Positions 1,955-23,273 of a stretch of 24,943 nt of DNA are shown piece after piece. Each line of letters starts with the position of its first letter. The first letter of the stretch is position 1. The notes beneath the pieces are model-generated. The model was not told the DNA's origin. It ran no database searches and saw only the letters and a list, made by a program, of their open reading frames with translations. This DNA is from Bacteroidota bacterium (GTDB lineage: Bacteria > Bacteroidota > Bacteroidia > Bacteroidales > JAIPAH01), in NCBI GenBank assembly GCA_034722575.1, contig JAYEOD010000061.1, positions 1 through 24,943 of the forward strand, read 5' to 3'. A program made the translations under genes and the position numbers.

Positions 1955-3619
1955 TTATTCAACAATTAAGCGTTGTAATAATTCGTTTCCATTAATATTT
2001 ATCTTGATAAAGAATAAACCGCTATTGTAATTTCCGGTGTTAAGCATAATAGCATGATTTCCGGTAGATAATTCGCCTTGATTATATTCAGAAATTTTTC
2101 TTCCATATACATCGAAAACAGTAACTGCTACATTAGCCGATTCAGCTAAATTTATATTTAAAGTAGCCTCTTCTTTAGCAGGATTTGGGAAAATGTTTAT
2201 TGTAGTTGTTGAAGCAATATTATCAATTCCTGTACCGGAATGTGTAAAGAATTGTGTCTCTTCGCGACCACCAAAGTCACTATTGTTTTCAGCGATTATA
2301 TTTTCCTGACTGTCTTTCAGTTGATAAACACCAACGCCATTACTAAAACCATCGTCTCCTGAGTCGTACATTATAAACGAATAACAATTTTCAGGATCTA
2401 AAGGAAGTTCAACTTGCATCTCTACAAATGTATTAGCATCTTCATAAGGTCCGCCTGAATACATAACATCGCCATCTGAATTTGTTAGTTCCCACGATAA
2501 CTCTTCCGGATTCCCGTCAGTACGAACTATAAGAACCATTGTAGCTGTTGTGATGTCTGCATCAGTAAAAGTAGTTGATGCAGTATTGTTTGTTGGGAAT
2601 TCATCATCAACACCATTAGGAGCACTTATTTCAATGGCAACTGTGTTTTCTTCGCCGGTTTCAAATTCTACTTCTTCAAGAGTAACATCTTCTGATTCCA
2701 GTAAAGCAAGGCTGCCTGTCCAGCTATATGTACTAGATACATTGTTAACAGAATAGTCGATAACAAGTGAAGTTAACTCTTCTTGACCGTAATTTTGAAT
2801 TGTAACTACAGGAGTCATACTTCCAGTACAATTTGTAACAGGAACATTTTTGATATCTGCTATAGAAGCGTCAATATTAAGTCCTTCAAATGTATTTAAG
2901 GCAATCTTTTTTCCTTGCAGAATCTCTTTAGTAGAGTTGTCTTGTAGAAAAATTATTATCTCACAATTCTCATAATTCCAATTCTCTTCCAAGTCAAAAC
3001 CGAAATTCACAGTAATAGTTTCATTATCTGTAAAATCAACATCTGTTCCATATTGATTGGGAATCATTAATCTTTCAACATGACTTAATTCAGTTTCACC
3101 CATCCATGATTCTGGGATATGAGATTCTGTTAATACAGCGTGCATTTTAATATTTGAAGCGTCTGAATCAGCTACTTTTGTTAAAGTAGTTTCAATTTCG
3201 TAATGAACAAACCCTGCGCTAGTACCAGTTGTTGTAATAGAATATGAACAAGGGATATTTTTTCTTAGATTATATTTTGTATTATATGTTCCGTATAAAG
3301 AACCACCACCTACAACTTTTTCCACACCATCAAATATTGATGTAGGGAATCCAGTGATGTTATAATAACTAATTCTAGAAGCACCTGCTGTGTTATCGTA
3401 TTCATCACCACTTCCGCTATGATAAGCGATAGGGGCTAGATCAGCTCCGTTTTCTAGTAATTGATGAATAGCATCTGCCGCATCAGGGCAGTATCCGCAC
3501 CATGTGCCAGTTCCTTCTTCAAGGATAACCATCTCTCTTTCTACTTGTTGGGCATTTACTGTTGTTAATGATAATGCAAAAATGAGTAGAGAAAATGTTA
3601 GTAAGTTTTTAATTTTCAT
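1955..3619 (-). CDS. Omp28-related thioredoxin-fold protein with T9SS type A C-terminal sorting domain
   Basis: Signal peptide MKIKNLLTFSLLIFALSLTTVNA-Q; Omp28-like start (ILEEGTGTWCGYCP, CxxC; ITGFPTSIFDG; HVERLMIP); Ig/CARDB-like segment (PVVTIQNYG...FPTNN); WEL...CYSFIMYDSGDDG module; T9SS-type tail (IFPNPAKE...VFDVYGRKI...SGLFFIKI...RLIVE). Confidence 0.82.
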   Translation of the reverse strand: MKIKNLLTFSLLIFALSLTTVNAQQVEREMVILEEGTGTWCGYCPDAADAIHQLLENGADLAPIAYHSGSGDEYDNTAGASRISYYNITGFPTSIFDGVEKVVGGGSLYGTYNTKYNLRKNIPCSYSITTTGTSAGFVHYEIETTLTKVADSDASNIKMHAVLTESHIPESWMGETELSHVERLMIPNQYGTDVDFTDNETITVNFGFDLEENWNYENCEIIIFLQDNSTKEILQGKKIALNTFEGLNIDASIADIKNVPVTNCTGSMTPVVTIQNYGQEELTSLVIDYSVNNVSSTYSWTGSLALLESEDVTLEEVEFETGEENTVAIEISAPNGVDDEFPTNNTASTTFTDADITTATMVLIVRTDGNPEELSWELTNSDGDVMYSGGPYEDANTFVEMQVELPLDPENCYSFIMYDSGDDGFSNGVGVYQLKDSQENIIAENNSDFGGREETQFFTHSGTGIDNIASTTTINIFPNPAKEEATLNINLAESANVAVTVFDVYGRKISEYNQGELSTGNHAIMLNTGNYNSGLFFIKININGNELLQRLIVE

Positions 3620-5301: not shown

Positions 5302-6204
5302 CTATTTAGTAAGACGTTGAAATACCTGTTCTAAAGTGTTTGTCTCTTTATTCAGACTGATAATAGTGAGGTTTTTGTCTATAGCATATTTGAATAATTC
5401 GGGACGGATATCTTTTTTTGTTGACGATTCAACAATCCATTTTGTTGAACTGATTTTTTTTGTGTGTAAAAGGCCTTCTATATTTGGTTTAAGCTCATTA
5501 AGAGGGGTGTCGAATTCAACTGTGATTATGTTTTTTTCTCCAAAAATTTTTGAGATGTTGCCGGTGGCATCATCTGCTACTACAGCTCCTTTTTTTATAA
5601 TAATAACCCTGCTGCACATTGCTTCAACTTCTTGCATGATGTGTGTGGAAAGAAGTACTGTTTTTTCTTTACCAATTGTGCGTATTAAATTTCTGATATC
5701 GCTTAATTGATTTGGGTCGAGCCCGGATGTTGGTTCGTCGAGGATTAATACTTTTGGATCGTGGATTAATGCCTGAGCAATGCCAACACGCTGTTTATAT
5801 CCTTTAGAAAGAAATCGAATTTTTTTATTTTGTTCTATAGTAAGTCCTGTAAGTTCTATAATTTCTTGAATGCGTTTTTTAGGATTTTCAATGTTATGAA
5901 TACCTGCAACAAAAAATAAGTACTCCTTAATATACATATCGGGGTAAAGAGGGTTGTTTTCGGGTAGATAACCTATTTGTTTACGAATATCAATAGAATT
6001 GTCGATAATATCCATGCCATTAACAGAAACAGAACCTTTAGACGGAGGGATAAAACAAGTGATAATTTTCATTAATGTAGATTTACCGGCTCCGTTAGGG
6101 CCTAATAAACCAACCACTTCGTTAGAGTTAATCTCTAAATTGATATTATTTAATGCTTTTTGTTGTCCGTAATATTTTGATAGGTTGTTAATTTTTATCG
6201 ACAT
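5302..6204 (-). CDS. gldA: ABC transporter ATP-binding protein, GldA-like (gliding motility/T9SS-associated)
   Basis: Walker A GPNGAGKST, GYLPENNPLYPDM, signature LSKGYKQRVG, Walker B LILDEPTSGLDPNQ, LSTHIMQEV, C-terminal LEQVFQRLTK. Length (300 aa) and termini resemble F. johnsoniae GldA as recalled. Confidence 0.75.
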   Translation of the reverse strand: MSIKINNLSKYYGQQKALNNINLEINSNEVVGLLGPNGAGKSTLMKIITCFIPPSKGSVSVNGMDIIDNSIDIRKQIGYLPENNPLYPDMYIKEYLFFVAGIHNIENPKKRIQEIIELTGLTIEQNKKIRFLSKGYKQRVGIAQALIHDPKVLILDEPTSGLDPNQLSDIRNLIRTIGKEKTVLLSTHIMQEVEAMCSRVIIIKKGAVVADDATGNISKIFGEKNIITVEFDTPLNELKPNIEGLLHTKKISSTKWIVESSTKKDIRPELFKYAIDKNLTIISLNKETNTLEQVFQRLTK

Positions 6205-15522: not shown

Positions 15523-16635
15523 TTACTGTTTTATGTTTTTTAATATTTCTTTCGCAATGGTTTCTGTAGCATTTGGTTTGGCGAAAAATTTAATGTTTTT
15601 TTCCAGTTTTGTTATCTCCAATTCGTTTTTTAATAATGTAGTAATGGTATTGTAAAGATCTTTATTAGTATCGGAGTTTTTAATTAATTTGGCAGCGTTT
15701 TTTTCAACTAACTGTAAAGCATTTTTTGTTTGATGATCTTCGGCTGCTGTGGGTAAAGGGACAAAAACACACGCTTTTCCTGTTATGCTTAACTCTGCAA
15801 TAGACAGGGCTCCGGCTCTGGAGACAACAATATCTGCAGCAGCAAAAGCATCGTCGATGTTATTGATAAATACAAAAGGTTTTACTCCCGAAATATTTAA
15901 TCGTTTAATATCGAATTTTGCTTGTTGTATATAATGTTTTCCTGTTTGCCAGATTAATTGAATGTCATCGTTATGGTATTTATCGAGATGATTATGGATA
16001 GCTTCGTTTATAGCACGGGCTCCTTGACTGCCTCCCATAATAAATACGGTTGGTTTATTTTCATCGAGATGGAATATTTTTCGTGCTCTGCTTTTTGTTT
16101 TAAGTTCTCTGAGTAGTGATAATCTTATTGGGTTTCCTGAAAAAATGGTTTTTTCTTTTGCAAAAAAAGAGTCCATATTTTCATATGCCACAAATATTTT
16201 CACAGCTTTTTTTGCTGATAATTTATTTGTAATTCCGGGAAAAGAATTTTGCTCCTGTAAAAACGTAGGAATGTTTCTGTTTTGAGCAATGCGTAGTGTA
16301 GGACCGCTGGCATAGCCGCCAAAACCTACTACAGCATCGGGTGCGAATTGTTTAATTGTTTTACGTGCTTTAAAAAGGCTGTAAAGCAACATAAAAGGGA
16401 ATTTCAGATTTTGTAATGAGAAATTTCTTTGTATTCCCATTATAGGTAGCCCTACAATATCGTATCCTGCTTCAGGAACTTTTTCCATCTCCATGCGACC
16501 TGTTGCTCCAATGAAAAGTATTTTAGCTTTTGGATGCAGTGTTTTAATTTTATCTGCAACAGCTAAAGCAGGAAGAATATGTCCTCCTGTTCCTCCTGCG
16601 CTGAAAATAATCTTTATATTTTCTTTTTTATTCAT
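15523..16635 (-). CDS. murG: MurG glycosyltransferase (start placed at ATG 16635, 1 nt after the ftsW stop)
   Basis: GGTGGHILPA, GFGGYASGP, EQNSFPG, GGSQGA, SRAGA, EDHQTKNA. Confidence 0.97.
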   Translation of the reverse strand: MNKKENIKIIFSAGGTGGHILPALAVADKIKTLHPKAKILFIGATGRMEMEKVPEAGYDIVGLPIMGIQRNFSLQNLKFPFMLLYSLFKARKTIKQFAPDAVVGFGGYASGPTLRIAQNRNIPTFLQEQNSFPGITNKLSAKKAVKIFVAYENMDSFFAKEKTIFSGNPIRLSLLRELKTKSRARKIFHLDENKPTVFIMGGSQGARAINEAIHNHLDKYHNDDIQLIWQTGKHYIQQAKFDIKRLNISGVKPFVFINNIDDAFAAADIVVSRAGALSIAELSITGKACVFVPLPTAAEDHQTKNALQLVEKNAAKLIKNSDTNKDLYNTITTLLKNELEITKLEKNIKFFAKPNATETIAKEILKNIKQ

Positions 16636-16636
16636 A

Positions 16637-17806
16637 CTAACTCTCCTCTTCAATAAATTCTTCACTTTTTTTAGTGTTAAGCTCTAGTTCATTGCTACGG
16701 CTAATTGCCTGTATTATGCCAAATGAAACAAGTATTGTTATTACAGATGTTCCTCCCATACTGATAATTGGTAATGTTTGTCCGGTAACGGGTAGTAAAC
16801 CTACTGAAACTCCCATATTAACCATAGCCTGGAAAGAAACCATAAAGCTAATGCCAAATACTGTTAGTTTTCTGAAATTGGTTTTACTTTTGTTAGATAT
16901 TTGTATTGCCCGAAACAGTAGTGCCAGATAGAGTGAAAGGATAAATATTCCTGAAAATATTCCGTATTCTTCTATAATAATAGCATAGATAAAATCATTA
17001 TGTGCTTGAGGGAGAAAAAATCTTTGAGTACTTTTTCCCGGAGTTTTCCCAAACCATCCGCCTGTGGCAACTGCCATTTTAGCTTGATTGCTTTGCCATT
17101 GTGCATCTTTTGATTGTTCGGCGGTGTTAGAAGAGGTGTATGTCTCTATTCTTTTTTTCCATGTGCCAAATCTGCCAACTTCGGGAAATGCATTTATTGC
17201 CATCCATAAAATACCCAGAAATATAATTACTGTACCGGCTAAAAGTAGTAAGTGTTTTATTGATGTGCGCCCGACAAAGAGTAAAAGCACGCTAGAGACA
17301 AAAACTAATGCCGATGTTGAAAAGTTTCCGACAAAAATAAAGCCACAAACAAGTGCTATGGGGATAAGTAGTTTTACAAAGGTGTTAAACTCTTTTATAG
17401 TTTTTTGGTTATTAGCAATCAATCGGGCAAGAAAGATTATTAAAATAAATTTTGCCGGGTCGGATGTTTGAAATGAGTTGAGAATTGGTACCTGTATCCA
17501 ACGCGATTCGTTACCAAAAATCATTGTAAATAACAGGGCAGGGATAATTACGAAAATACCTAGTTGCGATAGTCCTGATATTACTGATGGTTTTAGTTTG
17601 TGTGTAAAGTAGGCGGCAACCCAGCCAATTATTAAAAATAGTATCTGTCTTTTTAAATAATATTCTGTATCTCCTCCTTGAAGTTTATATGCTAAATTAC
17701 ATGAAGAACTATATACCGATACAATGGAGAAAATAGACAGGAAAAACATTATAACCCAAATGGCTCTGTCTCCTTCAAAATTTGCTTTGTATTTTCTAAA
17801 ATTCAT
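16637..17806 (-). CDS. ftsW: SEDS peptidoglycan polymerase FtsW
   Basis: Multi-TM protein; SFQTSDPAK, NFSTSAL, LPQAHNDFIYAIIIEEYG, LPVTGQTLPIISMGGTS. Confidence 0.95.
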   Translation of the reverse strand: MNFRKYKANFEGDRAIWVIMFFLSIFSIVSVYSSSCNLAYKLQGGDTEYYLKRQILFLIIGWVAAYFTHKLKPSVISGLSQLGIFVIIPALLFTMIFGNESRWIQVPILNSFQTSDPAKFILIIFLARLIANNQKTIKEFNTFVKLLIPIALVCGFIFVGNFSTSALVFVSSVLLLFVGRTSIKHLLLLAGTVIIFLGILWMAINAFPEVGRFGTWKKRIETYTSSNTAEQSKDAQWQSNQAKMAVATGGWFGKTPGKSTQRFFLPQAHNDFIYAIIIEEYGIFSGIFILSLYLALLFRAIQISNKSKTNFRKLTVFGISFMVSFQAMVNMGVSVGLLPVTGQTLPIISMGGTSVITILVSFGIIQAISRSNELELNTKKSEEFIEEES

Positions 17807-17862
17807 ATAAGTAATAGTTTGTGTTATTGTTTACAAGAGATACGTTAAAAGAAAATATCGGA

Positions 17863-18411
17863 TTATATTTTTCTGGTAAAATATTTAAACTGATCTCCTC
17901 TGTCATCATAATTTTTAAAAAGGTCGAAGCTGTTACACGCCGGCGAGAGTAGTACAGCGTGATTGTTTTCTGCTAAAGAGTATGCGCCCTTTACAGCCTC
18001 TTCCATAGATTGTGTTTCGTAAATAGTGTCAAAAATCCCACTAAATTCTTTTATTATTTTGGTGTTATCTTTTCCAATACAAATTATTGCTTTGACCTTT
18101 TCTTGAACTAATGGTATTAGTTTAGAGTAGTCGTTTCCATTGTCTTCGCCACCGGCAATCCATATAATTGGTTTGTTGATACTCTCTAAAGCATACCAAG
18201 TACTGTTTATTTTAGTTGCTTTTGAGTCGTTTATAAACTCTATACCGTGTATGGTGGAGACAGATTCTAAGCGATGCTCAATATTTTGAAAGTCGGATAA
18301 GCACTGTTGAATGTTGCTTTTTCTGATATCGAGTAAACGAGAGGTTATTCCCGCAGCCATTGAATTGTGTTTGGTGGTTTTGCCTTGCAATGCTAATTCT
18401 TCTAGGGTCAT
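17863..18411 (-). CDS. murD: Stand-alone C-terminal domain of MurD (182 aa); N-terminal and central ATPase domains absent; either a pseudogene remnant or a diverged paralog
   Basis: Matches the last ~40% of MurD: NSMAAG, EHRLE, FINDSKAT, WIAGG, VLLSPAC.SFDLFKNY..RG. Sits in the murD slot between mraY and ftsW. Only 44 bp lie upstream, with an in-frame TAA four codons before the ATG. Confidence 0.9.
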   Translation of the reverse strand: MTLEELALQGKTTKHNSMAAGITSRLLDIRKSNIQQCLSDFQNIEHRLESVSTIHGIEFINDSKATKINSTWYALESINKPIIWIAGGEDNGNDYSKLIPLVQEKVKAIICIGKDNTKIIKEFSGIFDTIYETQSMEEAVKGAYSLAENNHAVLLSPACNSFDLFKNYDDRGDQFKYFTRKI

Positions 18412-18455
18412 AATATTTTTTTATATAAAATAAGTTTGTTTTTATCTTTTGTTTA

Positions 18456-19709
18456 TTATCTGATTTTTAATGTTACGATTGTTAGAATGGCCAGCATAAT
18501 TCCTATAATCATAAATCGTTGTACGATTTTTGGCTCCGGATATCCTAGCTTTTGATAATGATGATGTAGCGGAGACATCTTAAATATTCTGCGTCCTTCG
18601 CCATGTTTTTTCTTTGTGTATTTGAAGTAGCTTACCTGAAGCACAACAGATAGATTTTCTGCTAAAAATATCCCGCAAAGGATAGGGATAAGAAGCTCTT
18701 TTCGAATCATTATTGCAAAAACAGCAATAACTCCTCCTAATGTAAGGCTGCCTGTGTCGCCCATAAATACTTGCGCAGGATAGGAGTTGTACCATAAAAA
18801 TCCAATACTTGCTCCAACAAAAGCACTGATATAAATGGTTAATTCGCCAACATTAGGGATGTACATTATATTCAGATAATCGGAGAAAACAATATTGCCG
18901 GAAATCCATGCCAGAAGACCTAAAGTGGCTCCTATTATAGCTGAAGTTCCTGTTGCTAACCCATCTATTCCATCGGTTAAATTGGCTCCATTAGAGACAG
19001 ATGTGACTATTAATATTATGATAGGGATAAATATCAGGAAGGTGTATTTTCCTGCTCCTTTGCCTAGCCATGAGATTAAAATTCCGTAGTCGAATTCGTT
19101 ATTTTTTACGAATGGAATTGTTGTTTTTGTTGATTTTATTGGTTCGGTATATCTTTCATATACTGTATTTGCTGCAGCAGATGTACTGTTTGCGATTTGT
19201 GTAGCTGTCTTTTCGTGGGTTTGTAGCTTTTCTTTAATAACAATGTCTTCGTTAAAATACATTGTTACACCAACTACAATACCTAAAATTACTTGTCCTA
19301 AAATTTTAAATTTTCCGGCTAAACCCTTTTTGTCTTTTCTAAAAACTTTGATGTAGTCATCTATAAAGCCAATGATTCCAAGCCATATGGTTGCGAATAG
19401 GATTAGTAAAATGTAAATATTATCGAGTTTAGCAAATAGTAATGTTGGTATTACAATGGCTCCTATAATAATTAAACCTCCCATTGTAGGAGTGCCTTGT
19501 TTTTCTGTTTGACCGGAAAGTCCGAGATTGCGAACAGTTTCGCCAACTTGTTTTTTTACTAACAGGCGTATTAGGCTTTTCCCAAAAAGAAGAGATATCA
19601 ACAGCGATGTGATTGCTGCTCCGGCTGCCCGGAAAGAGATATATTGAAACATTCCTGCTCCAGGAAAATTAAACGCTTTGTCAAGATGTTCGAACAAATA
19701 GTATAGCAT
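18456..19709 (-). CDS. mraY: Phospho-N-acetylmuramoyl-pentapeptide transferase (start placed at ATG 19709, MLYYLF)
   Basis: [44 protein letters not shown]. Confidence 0.98.
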
Positions 19710-19713
19710 GGTT

Positions 19714-21168
19714 TTATTTAATGTATTCGTTAATAATTTCTTTGTCGTCAAAATGTTGTTTCACACCATTTATCTCCTGATACTTCTCATGTCCTTTTCC
19801 TGCTATAAGAATAATATCGCCTGGATTAGAGAGAAAACATGCTGTTTTAATGGCCTCTTTTCGAGAGGTGATAGAGATTACCTTGCCTTTTGCTTCTGCC
19901 GGAATCCCTTTTTCAATATCTCTGATAATGGTATCAGGATCTTCGTTGCGAGGATTGTCGGAAGTGAGAATCACTTTGTTGCTCAAGGTGGCGGCTATTT
20001 TTCCCATAATTGGACGCTTTGAAGAGTCTCTGTCTCCACCGGCGCCAATTACAGAAATTAGTGTTTCGTTATGTGTTCTGGATTCATTGATAGTCTCCAG
20101 TACATTTTTTAACGCATCGGGTGTGTGGGCATAATCTATAATAACTATCCTGCCTTCGGTTGATTTTGTGTAGTCGAAGCGTCCTTCTACAGTTTTTAAA
20201 TTGCTTATAGATGTTAATACTTCTGTGATGTTTTCGCCTAAAAGTATAGCGGTGGCGTATGTTGCCAGTAAGTTGTAAGCATTGAATCTTCCAACGAGCC
20301 GGCACCAAACCTCCAGATTATTTATCTGTAAAGAAAATCCTTCTAGTTCGTTTGATAAAAGTTTTGCCTTAAAATCAGCATTTCTGTTTAGTGCGTAAGT
20401 GTATTTTTTTGCCTTTGTGTTTTGTAATAATATATTTCCGTTTTTGTCGTCGATATTTGTTAATGCCCATGATGTTTTTGGTAGATTATCGAAAAATATT
20501 TTTTTTGCGTATAGATACTCTTTGAAAGTTTTGTGATAATCTAAATGGTCTTGTGTTAGGTTCGAAAATATTCCTCCAACAAAGTGTAGCCCAAAAATCC
20601 TGTCTTGATGAATGGCGTGTGAGCTGACTTCCATAAAACAATGAGTAACTCTGTTTTTTACCATGTTATGTAGTAACTCATTTAATTTTATAGGGTCGGG
20701 CGTTGTGTGTGTTGCAGGGAAAATATTATCGTCGATTTTGTTTTCTATTGTAGATATTAAACCGCAAGAGTATCCTAAATCTCTGAAAAGATTGAATAAT
20801 AAAGTAACAGTGGTTGTTTTTCCATTGGTTCCTGTTATGCCAACCAGATTTATTTTTTTTGACGGGTTGTTATAGTAGTTAGATGCTATTAAGCTAAGTG
20901 CTTTTCTGGAGTTGTTGGTTTTAATATAGGTTATATTGTCAGATAGTTGTTTGGGAAGCTCTTCGCAAACAATTGCTGAAACACTGTTTTTTTCAACCTC
21001 GCTAATGAATTTGTGTCCATCGGCTTGTGTGCCTTTTACAGCAATAAAAAGACTTTCTTTTTCGCACTTGCGTGAGTCGAAAGAGATATTCTCTATTTCA
21101 CGATTTATTGATCCAACAATTTCTGTTGAGTCAACTCCTTTTAATATGTCTTTTAAATTTTTTTTCAT
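19714..21168 (-). CDS. murE: UDP-N-acetylmuramoyl-L-alanyl-D-glutamate--2,6-diaminopimelate ligase
   Basis: [37 protein letters not shown] (meso-DAP specificity motif), GKGHE. Confidence 0.98.
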
Positions 21169-21170
21169 TG

Positions 21171-23273
21171 TTATGATAGATGTAAAACAATTTTTCTTCC
21201 TGTTGTGGCTTTTGTTCCGGGAATGATTGATTGTCTTCGTACTTTCCCTTTTCCGTATATTGTTACGTTTAACTCAAGTTTTTCAAGAATATATATAGCA
21301 TCTTTAATTCCCATTCCTCTTACGTTAGGAATAATATTTTCTTTAAATTTTCTGATGCCAAATTGCACTGTGTCTTGTATGCGTGTGCTTATTACCCACT
21401 CTGCTTCTGAGCTGTTTTCATCAATATGATAGCCTAGGTTTTTATAGATGTTTTCCAGATCGTTGCGTTGTGCTACAGCGATTAGAGGTGGATACGACGT
21501 AATGACTTTTTTTATTTCGTAATCTTGGATTTCTATGTGTGTTGCATAAATTTTATCAGAAATATCTTTAAAAACAGTTCCCGATACTTGATTTCCATAA
21601 TAAGAGCCTTTTGTAGGCTGATTGATTGTTACAATTATGCTATATTGAGGGTTGTTTGCCGGGAAATATCCTGCAAAAGAAGCCTTGTAATCCGACTTGT
21701 TATATCCTCCGGATTTTTGAGCTATTTGTGCGGTGCCTGTTTTTCCTGCTATTTTATAAACACTGCTTTTTAAATTTCGTGCAGTACCTTCCCGAACAAC
21801 GTTTTCCAGAAGTTGTTGTACGATTTTTATTGATTTGTCTGATGCAATAGATGGATTGATGATTTGTGTTTCAAATTTTTTTATAATATCGCCGGAGTTG
21901 CGAACCTCTTTTACAAACTGCGGCTTTATCATTTTACCATCGTTAGCAACAGCATTATAAAATGTTAGTATTTGTAATGGGGTAAGTAGTGTTTCGTAGC
22001 CGATTGACATCCATGGCAATGAAACTGCCGACCAAGAAGTTTGGTCGGGAGAGTTGAAATAAGGTGAGCCTTCACCTTTAATATCTAGGTCTAGCTTTTT
22101 TAATAACGAAAAATTTTCGATTGTAGATAGAAAATCTTTAGGGTCGTTATACGCTTCCGTTATAATAGTGGAGACTCCAATATTTGATGATTTTACAAAA
22201 ATTTCAGATACTGATAATTTGCCATATCCTCCACGATGAGAATCGGTCATATAACGATTTGCAAACCGTTTTCTCCCTTTTCCGGTATCTATTGTATCAT
22301 TTAAGTCGGGTAGTTTTCCGTCTTCCAGAGCGGCGAGATACGAAATAAGTTTAAAGGTAGATCCCGGTTCGCTGGCTTCTCCAATGGCGTAATTATATAT
22401 TTCGTTGTAATTGCCGTTTTTGTCTTTGCCGATATTTGCAATGGCTTTTATTTGTCCTGTATGTACTTCCATTACAATGGCAGAGCCATGATGAGCAGCG
22501 TGTTTTTCTAGTTGCTCCCTAAGACTTGTTTCGGCAACATCTTGAATATTTACATCGATTGTAGTAATAATATCGAAACCATTTTTTGGTTCTATTTGGT
22601 TTGTGAACTCAGCAGGAATCCACGATCCGTCTGCTGTTTTCTGAAGGATACGCTCTCCATGTTCTCCTTGTAAGTAGTTGTTGTATGCGCCTTCTATTCC
22701 AACATCATTTTTTGTGTTTTTATTAGAGTAACCTAATGTTCTCGAGGCAATGTCTCCGTAAGGTTTTGTGCGGTGAGTTTTCGTTTCTATTAGTAGCCCC
22801 CCTCTATATTTCCCTCTATTTAGTATTGGGAATTTTTTTATGATATTTAGTTGGCGATAGGTGATACCTCTTTTTAATAGTAGGTATCTATTTCCTTTTT
22901 TACGTGCTTTTTTTAATTTATTTAAGTAGTAAGAGTAGCTATGGTTGTTGAAGTGGTATGCAAATTGTTTTGCTAAGGCAGAAACAGAGTCGTTGAATAA
23001 TTTGTTTGAGATGTTGCTGTTTGCTACGTCCATACGGATATTAAAAACAGGTACTGATGTAACAAGTAGTGTGCCGTCGTCAGCGCAGATGTTACCACGA
23101 ACAGCTTCTACTTTATCTGGTCTGAAGGTTAGTTGTTTTGCCTCATTAATCCATTTTTCATTTTCAACAAATTGAATATTGATAATCTGAATTAATATTA
23201 GTGCCCCCAGTATTGCTGTGGAAACATAAACAAGAAAAGCCCTTATTATGATTGTGTTTTTGGGATCGGACAT
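21171..23273 (-). CDS. ftsI: Class B penicillin-binding protein FtsI/PBP3 with C-terminal PASTA domain
   Basis: N-terminal TM; RGNI dimerisation domain; SxxK (STFK), SxN (SSN), KTG (GKTGT); PNVRGMGIKDA PASTA domain. Confidence 0.94.
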   Translation of the reverse strand: MSDPKNTIIIRAFLVYVSTAILGALILIQIINIQFVENEKWINEAKQLTFRPDKVEAVRGNICADDGTLLVTSVPVFNIRMDVANSNISNKLFNDSVSALAKQFAYHFNNHSYSYYLNKLKKARKKGNRYLLLKRGITYRQLNIIKKFPILNRGKYRGGLLIETKTHRTKPYGDIASRTLGYSNKNTKNDVGIEGAYNNYLQGEHGERILQKTADGSWIPAEFTNQIEPKNGFDIITTIDVNIQDVAETSLREQLEKHAAHHGSAIVMEVHTGQIKAIANIGKDKNGNYNEIYNYAIGEASEPGSTFKLISYLAALEDGKLPDLNDTIDTGKGRKRFANRYMTDSHRGGYGKLSVSEIFVKSSNIGVSTIITEAYNDPKDFLSTIENFSLLKKLDLDIKGEGSPYFNSPDQTSWSAVSLPWMSIGYETLLTPLQILTFYNAVANDGKMIKPQFVKEVRNSGDIIKKFETQIINPSIASDKSIKIVQQLLENVVREGTARNLKSSVYKIAGKTGTAQIAQKSGGYNKSDYKASFAGYFPANNPQYSIIVTINQPTKGSYYGNQVSGTVFKDISDKIYATHIEIQDYEIKKVITSYPPLIAVAQRNDLENIYKNLGYHIDENSSEAEWVISTRIQDTVQFGIRKFKENIIPNVRGMGIKDAIYILEKLELNVTIYGKGKVRRQSIIPGTKATTGRKIVLHLS

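Follow-up and report, generated by a model that had tools for sequence, protein, structure and literature searches.

The contig analysed here (JAYEOD010000061.1 of assembly GCA_034722575.1, positions 1 to 24,943; hereafter the window) comes from a member of the order Bacteroidales and carries, between mraY and ftsW of its division and cell wall (dcw) cluster, a 182-codon gene that encodes only the C-terminal part of MurD, the ligase of the D-glutamate (D-Glu) step. This gene, which we call the stub, is a real, intact gene that is position-orthologous to murD and encodes the MurD tail. Our best explanation, to which we give a probability of about 0.62, is that the stub is a stand-alone MurD C-terminal module with a selected, non-catalytic role, while D-Glu is supplied by a MurD2/MurL route. 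The window is the complete contig C61 of a 560-contig metagenome-assembled genome (MAG) from a brine metagenome (90 % complete, 2.2 % contamination, GC 34 %; G000 hereafter); its dcw cluster is of the Bacteroidota type, lies on the minus strand and shows the expected Pfam domains in all genes.

Anatomy of the stub and verification of the locus

The stub and its parts are arranged as follows.

17863..18411, minus strand: stub gene of 182 codons and a stop, the homologue of the C-terminal 182 residues of canonical dcw MurD
18274..18411, minus strand: stub residues 1–46, the last two helices of the former central domain, with the degraded ATP-side motif and the HRLE linker
17866..18273, minus strand: stub residues 47–182, Rossmann-like MurD domain 3, with NDSKAT, SPAC.SFD and RG..F kept
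18412..18455, minus strand: A/T-rich spacer of 44 nt from the mraY stop to the stub ATG, the presumed translation-initiation region

A reading made from the letters of the window alone (the sequence-only reading) had proposed that the murD slot holds nothing but the C-terminal domain, and profile searches agree. The sole Pfam match of the stub is Mur_ligase_C (PF02875, 53 bits), and the TIGR01087 murD model is covered at profile positions 263–440 only (181.9 bits against a cut-off of 211.95). Neither MurD-like_N, the UDP-N-acetylmuramic acid (UDP-MurNAc)-binding domain, nor Mur_ligase_M was matched in the stub, and a search of it for the GxxGK[TS] P-loop pattern was empty. Domains 1 and 2 (~265 residues) are thus gone, and with them the UDP-binding fold, the P-loop, the DH motif and the carbamoyl-lysine. 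Nothing recognisable is left of the missing ~265 codons in the 44-nt spacer; an extension of the hidden Markov model match into the spacer was rejected as spurious (two TAA codons). Lacking the UDP-MurNAc-binding domain, the P-loop and the carbamoyl-lysine region, the stub cannot be a ligase. The start context is also as first described, with an N-terminus reading MTLEELALQG and an A at −3. The mraY stop lies at 18456–18458, and the gene is predicted from its sequence to be expressed.

Domain 3 is present with its D-Glu/ATP-contact motifs HRLE, NDSKAT and SPAC.SFD. The ATP-side motif, GKHNxYN in full-length genes, reads GKTTKHN in the stub (compared with the MurD of G002), and the position of Escherichia coli K348 is occupied by N (GGEDNGNDY); altogether, four ligand-contact positions of the G000 stub are changed (H12T, N13T, K91N and A160N).

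Misassembly at the mraY–stub junction, which the sequence-only reading had left open, is excluded because positions 17300–19300 are covered by Logan contigs, built independently for each of four runs from one brine study, that bridge the junction without joints (e.g. one of 3775 nt over 17514–19300 and others over 18017–18661 and 18294–19300), and because the same layout lies on a 5.26-Mb contig of another genome. The contigs of all four runs carry an A>T change at 17905, which replaces D169 with E and moves the protein towards the family consensus NYEDRG, and those of three runs have an extra T after 18415, within the spacer and 4 nt ahead of the stub start codon. The MAG consensus is therefore a slightly imperfect match to the dominant population. 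The only other difference from the window is a synonymous change at 18133.

A MurD2/MurL pair as the probable source of D-glutamate

A search of the whole G000 genome with the murD model returned one full-length match, a 451-aa protein on contig C540 (5750–7105; TIGR01087, 318 bits), which has a P-loop and whose C-domain is 29 % identical to the stub. In an alignment with E. coli MurD, it shows E at D182 (EEH vs EDH), R at K348 (GGFDR vs GGDGK) and I at K319. These are the L-Glu determinants given in the review PMC8788868, according to which double replacement of E197 and R358 in Xanthomonas MurD2 converts the enzyme to a D-Glu ligase and E. coli MurD can use L-Glu after the change K319T. The end of a MurL-like gene (C540 4393–5769, 458 aa) overlaps the start of the MurD2 gene at 5750. 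Glutamate racemase (MurI, TIGR00067) was not found in the 90 %-complete genome, and no D-amino-acid aminotransferase scored over the cut-off in it. The GC content of C540 is 33 %, against a genome mean of 34 %.

From these sequence features, the MurD2/MurL pair very likely took over the D-Glu step, with MurD2 predicted to ligate L-Glu and MurL predicted to carry out the ATP-dependent L-to-D epimerization. The seemingly missing essential ligase is then an ordinary matter, since a known route is present in which L-Glu is ligated and afterwards epimerized. The sequence-only reading had placed D-Glu addition in a relocated or duplicated murD, a split gene or another enzyme; the last of these stands, in the form of the MurD2-type paralogue with its MurL-like epimerase, and the relocated copy and the split gene do not. 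A split gene was rejected as no canonical N-terminal half occurs in G000 or in any of the N-less genomes described below.

As a side observation, contigs C27 and C28 of G000 are of equal length (5954 nt), and each has matches of the Mur-ligase kind, though not at the same positions; the bin may hold them as related or duplicate contigs.

Distribution across the order

We sampled 401 genomes of the Bacteroidales, all at least 90 % complete, and searched them for the canonical part of MurD, the query being the N-terminal and central domains taken from the MurD of a congener. Best E values were sharply bimodal, at 1e-56 or better in 338 genomes and between 1e-14 and 1e-31 in 62, with one intermediate. 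The latter group, in which the best matches are MurD2 or other Mur ligases, was scored as being without the canonical N-terminal and central part (N-less); it makes up 62 of the 401 genomes (~15 %) and spans 30 GTDB families. The two groups differ in their glutamate enzymes.

N-less group: 62 genomes, MurL-like gene in 60, MurI in 1 (G128, at a contig edge)
N-present group: 339 genomes, MurL-like gene in 79, MurI in 250

The association between MurL and the N-less state is strong (Fisher p = 8e-30), with a significance that is overstated because relatives are not independent. MurI, found in 251 of the 401 genomes, co-occurs with MurL in only three, two of them weak matches, so that the two genes are almost mutually exclusive across the sample.

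Nearly all N-less genomes returned two matches to the stub as query, one to a canonical-type C-domain and one of the MurD2 type. The mraY–stub–ftsW layout, which the sequence-only reading had proposed to look for in related genomes, was verified in 18, including on contigs of 5.26 Mb and 1.5 Mb, and open frames of stub length (178–193 aa) occur in 9 further genomes. The latter include divergent stubs in small, 97–100 %-complete genomes of families f42, f72, f84 and f118; reduced genomes (1.8–2.1 Mb) retain the gene, and it is fixed in whole families (f3, f4, f32, f42, f58, f72, f84, f116, f118 and f122). Among the N-less genomes, the stub was not found in four fragmented MAGs only (G087, G120, G153 and G094), in one of which the gene is split over contig ends, and G097 is ambiguous, with its stub match at a contig edge. 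None of the 27 inspected stub loci holds a frameshifted or stop-broken intermediate. Sampling of 136 genomes from other orders and classes of the phylum yielded no stub, all frames there being at least 430 aa, and no cultured strain was found among the stub records, every one of which is a MAG. All six congeners of G000 have a full-length murD (446–451 aa) in the slot, together with a MurD2 paralogue and MurL; the stub is 65–70 % identical to the C-terminal 182 residues of their full-length MurD.

Several single genomes merit mention. G094, although scored N-less, shows in its murD slot a divergent N-terminal piece at the end of a contig, with a middle piece lying on a second contig (C85:17863–18432; C119:124–417), and here a divergent gene split by the assembly is more likely. 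The mraY–ftsW slot of G020 (2.1 Mb in 10 contigs, 98 % complete) holds just a stub that has diverged strongly (33 % identity; G020:C4:297000–303000, frame 2423–3058), and this genome yielded no MurD or MurD2 over the cut-off, no MurL and no MurI. In the opposite direction, the 79 genomes with MurL and without MurI keep a full-length, well-conserved canonical MurD (dN/dS, the ratio of non-synonymous to synonymous substitution rates, 0.06–0.08 in the genus of G000); one idea is that D-Glu salvaged from turnover is the reason for which the canonical enzyme is kept beside MurL. MurL matches also lie in open frames of 885–949 aa in G090, G207, G300 and G379 (f84) and in G097 and G382 (f91); in G090, a MurD2-type C-domain sits in the same 885-aa frame as MurL, and these are apparent MurL–MurD2 fusions. 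Long frames around MurD in G484 and G518 were considered as MurD–FtsW fusions and rejected as N-terminal extensions in high-GC genomes.

A count of stubs in a collection of 5.8 billion proteins (5554 matches, many of exactly 182 aa) was not used, the entries on short contigs being largely artefacts of gene calling at contig edges. The collection 'protein' P0009 is identical to the C-terminal part of the full-length gene of G007, which shows that gene callers create false stand-alone domains at contig edges, and dozens of '182-aa' MurD C-terminal proteins on contigs of ~1 kb begin at the conserved internal Met described below.

Recurrent truncation at a shared methionine

The truncation is recurrent, with many independent events leading to the same end-product. 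One genus may hold both full-length and stub species, as locus checks showed for g1, g49, g69 and g140 and E values for g48 and g61, and stubs are strongly supported as sisters of full-length genes, e.g. in the pairs G075/G194 and G176/G050. On the genome-only tree, eight changes of state are needed, three of them forced by starred branches.

In 15 of 17 aligned stubs, the open reading frame (ORF) starts at the identical Met, and the other two begin 1 and ~10 residues upstream. This Met is an internal, conserved residue in the full-length MurD of the order (..FTMTLEELALQGKHNxYNS..), and the stretch from it to the stop measures 182 codons whether the gene is full-length or a stub. A pre-existing internal start found no clear support in 91 full-length genes, where the A-content of the 20 nt before the Met is 0.46, against a gene mean of ~0.34 and 0.42 at control Met codons.

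Selection on the stub

The stub class is under strong purifying selection. In those stub–stub pairs with measurable dS (0.7–1.0; most pairs are saturated), dN/dS is 0.054, 0.079 and 0.082, close to the 0.056–0.083 obtained for C-domain pairs of full-length genes in the genus of G000; between G000 and its congeners, dS is saturated in the pairwise comparison. The sequence-only reading had raised a decaying domain and an ordinary pseudogene, with a truncation unique to this strain and dN/dS near 1. Neither is supported by what was found, namely truncation in 30 families and a class-wide dN/dS of 0.05–0.08, and its other suggestion, of a retained protein that may serve in binding or scaffolding, has fared better.

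For a comparison by residue, positions at least 94 % invariant in 17 full-length sequences were checked in 17 stubs. Forty-four of the 55 such positions stay at least 94 % conserved in the stubs and 11 are relaxed. Those kept include H46/R47 (E. coli H301/R302), N61-D62-S63-K64-A65-T66 (D317, K319 and T321), S156-P157-A158-C159 and S161-F162-D163 (S415 and L416) and R171-G172..F175. The relaxed positions cluster at H12, N13, Y15 and N16, which form the ATP-side HN..N motif, and at K91 (E. coli K348); the ATP-side His has disappeared from 10 of 12 stub lineages and the K348 equivalent from several, G000 among them. Stub branches are longer than full-length branches. The pattern is one of constraint lost on catalysis-specific contacts and of strong constraint kept on the fold and the cleft-facing pocket.

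Predicted structure

An AlphaFold2 model of the stub, built from a 31-sequence alignment, reached a mean predicted local distance difference test score (pLDDT) of 80, with residues 47–182 at 86–97 forming the Rossmann-like domain. Its best Foldseek matches are MurD structures (7ti7, 7u35 and 1uag, among others; template modelling score ~0.7 over 139–146 columns), followed by weaker matches to MurE, MurF, MurT and the MurE-like subunit of plastid RNA polymerase. A single co-folding job of the stub with MurL and MurG (residues 12–370), run with no controls, scored 0.00 against a mark of 0.34 and counts neither for nor against these partners.

Weighing of alternative explanations

A number of observations weigh against a selected module beside a MurD2/MurL route. 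The counts across relatives are not independent. The G000 stub lies on a branch two to four times longer than those of its congeners (0.36–0.42 vs 0.06–0.17), and since it has also lost the K348 equivalent, some relaxation is real in this copy; it has no relative closer than 69 % identity, and selection on it is deduced from its class. The orphaned central-domain helices (residues 1–21 and 35–46) have pLDDT values below 50. On the side of the substitute route, the MurL-like protein scores 257 bits (E value 2.6e-76) against NF041275, far under the 700-bit equivalog cut-off, and is a distant homologue; the G000 MurD2 is just 47–49 % identical to that of the congeners; and assignment of C540 to the G000 organism rests on binning (in a MAG of 90 % completeness and 2 % contamination) together with the order-wide pattern.

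The long branch and the four ligand-contact changes are also what would be expected if murD had been partly deleted after the MurD2/MurL takeover and the 182-codon frame were a young, as yet unbroken pseudogene fragment without function, and the full-length genes of all congeners do place the event as recent on the scale of the genus. We nevertheless regard such decay as unlikely, for the same product recurs in at least six genera and is fixed in whole families, no broken intermediate appeared among the inspected loci, reduced genomes retain the gene, the low stub–stub dN/dS and the 44 conserved positions speak of constraint, and the population variant D169E runs towards the family consensus. 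Somewhat less probable again is retention of the 3′ third of murD for the promoter or translational-coupling signals of ftsW, with an irrelevant amino-acid sequence. The stop of the stub or of murD abuts or overlaps the ftsW start in most relatives, as is typical of coupled dcw genes, and the lethality of deletions into the ftsW signals could bias which deletions survive; but a spacer ORF would need neither a dN/dS of 0.05–0.08 nor invariant ligand-pocket motifs, a much shorter ORF would be enough, yet all lineages retain the whole module from the same Met, and in G000 a 56-nt spacer parts the stub from ftsW.

Catalysis in trans, in which the free C-domain would close on the N-terminal and central domains of another Mur ligase (e.g. 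MurD2) as a split or salvage D-Glu ligase, has in its favour that stubs are most conserved in the cleft-facing residues that bind D-Glu and the adenine side (HR, NDSKAT and the equivalents of S415 and F422). It strikes us as improbable nonetheless, given that neither G000 nor the other 61 N-less genomes have a canonical N-terminal half (best E values 1e-14 to 1e-31), MurD2 has a C-domain of its own, 10 of the 12 stub lineages no longer have the ATP-side HN..N motif and several, G000 among them, no longer have K348, and no source of free D-Glu is evident. An artefact, whether through a full-length murD in the real genome or a MurD2/MurL contig from another organism, would be the natural worry with a 560-contig MAG of this completeness and contamination. 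It is very improbable in view of the independently assembled contigs of four runs that span mraY–stub–ftsW without joints, the identical layout on long contigs of other genomes, the GC content of C540 and the presence of MurL and MurD2 in all congeners and of MurL in 60 of the 62 N-less genomes.

Proposed function and significance

We thus favour the stub as a selected module over these alternatives. That it is a selected non-catalytic protein of some kind is likely, and more so than the full explanation given at the outset. The mechanism that we propose would begin with the D-Glu position of the stem peptide being made by the MurD2/MurL route from the other contig. With that route in place and MurI gone, the catalytic two-thirds of canonical MurD would have become dispensable, and this part has been deleted many times independently in Bacteroidales, with the C-terminal module kept each time. 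The stub would carry on a second, non-catalytic function of the MurD tail, one that MurD2 cannot supply: the retained cleft-facing pocket (D317, K319, T321, S415 and F422 equivalents) may bind the glutamate end of the nucleotide precursor (UDP-MurNAc-dipeptide) or a partner protein, and such binding might couple precursor supply to the neighbouring MurE/MraY/FtsW/MurG machinery. Between the two forms of this idea, a ligand- or precursor-binding adaptor is a tentative proposal, and a pure protein scaffold slightly more doubtful still.

A broader hypothesis, which we hold at somewhat under even odds, is that the MurD C-module has a second, near-indispensable non-catalytic function in Bacteroidales, in which it would connect the cytoplasmic synthesis of precursors with MurE/MraY/FtsW/MurG as an adaptor or a ligand sensor. 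If true, this function would have been exposed by at least a dozen natural 'domain-deletion experiments', in which the catalytic domains were removed after the MurD2/MurL takeover and the tail was never lost. Multi-enzyme Mur complexes have long been postulated and are poorly defined. Few antibiotic-target enzymes have been studied as well as MurD, which is regarded as a monomeric ligase with a purely catalytic role; a domain kept repeatedly under selection after catalysis has moved elsewhere would be natural evidence for a separable second role in complex assembly, precursor hand-off or sensing. MurD is known to bind a MurE–MurF chimera with a dissociation constant of ~0.8 µM, and natural MurD–FtsW chimeras exist (PMC10214165).

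In practical terms, the 182-aa stub offers a minimal construct for partner or ligand searches. The MurD2/MurL bypass is common in environmental Bacteroidales (35 % of the sampled genomes), which bears on ideas for pathway-specific inhibitors and on genome annotation. Searches of the literature library available to us returned no description of a stand-alone MurD C-domain or of MurL in Bacteroidota, and NCBI labels such proteins as 'glutamate ligase domain-containing protein', partial MurD or cyanophycin synthetase.

Other genes of the window

The neighbours of the stub include the following genes.

18456..19751, minus strand: mraY, upstream neighbour, with Glycos_transf_4 and MraY_sig1
16637..17806, minus strand: ftsW, downstream neighbour, FTSW_RODA_SPOVE (213.8 bits)
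19714..21168, minus strand: murE, three Mur ligase domains, with GKT and DNPR motifs
15523..16665, minus strand: murG, Glyco_transf_28 N- and C-terminal domains
21171..23273, minus strand: ftsI, 700 aa
10187..11959, minus strand: ftsZ, 590 aa

Past murG, the cluster also contains murC, ftsQ, ftsA and ftsZ. MurE, MraY, FtsW, MurG, MurC, FtsI, FtsQ and FtsA are intact, which bears out the earlier view that the enzymes around the stub are complete. Two of the division proteins have additional features: FtsI carries a C-terminal PASTA domain (residues 647–700, 37 bits), unusual for Gram-negative class B penicillin-binding proteins, and FtsZ, whose tubulin and FtsZ_C domains are over by residue 313, has a C-terminal extension of ~275 residues.

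Comparison with known systems

The closest relative of the stub is canonical MurD itself, which it resembles in its slot (mraY–murD–ftsW), sequence, domain-3 fold and HRLE, NDSKAT, SPAC.SFD and RG..F motifs. It differs in having neither domain 1 nor domain 2, in its degraded K348 equivalent and HN..N motif on the ATP side, and in a score under the family cut-off.

For the proposed scaffold role, an analogy in manner of working may be drawn with two Mur-ligase folds that serve as binding or structural modules and whose structures are among the fold matches of the stub model: the MurE-like PAP11, a structural subunit of the plastid-encoded RNA polymerase (PDB 8qma and 8r6s), and the C-domain of MurT, which docks GatD (6h5e). 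Both are other paralogues (MurE and MurT) with 10–14 % identity to the stub, and both keep several domains.

The substitute route resembles the MurD2/MurL pathway of Xanthomonas oryzae (Feng et al. 2017, 2019, as reviewed in PMC8788868) in that the G000 MurD paralogue has E at D182 and R at K348, the MurL homologue adjoins and overlaps MurD2, and MurI was not found; the G000 MurL is divergent (257 bits vs the 700-bit cut-off). Of a canonical MurD tail kept beside this pathway, the review says nothing. It lists the pathway for some Gamma- and Alphaproteobacteria and Micromonosporaceae only, whereas here it is present in 139 of the 401 sampled Bacteroidales.

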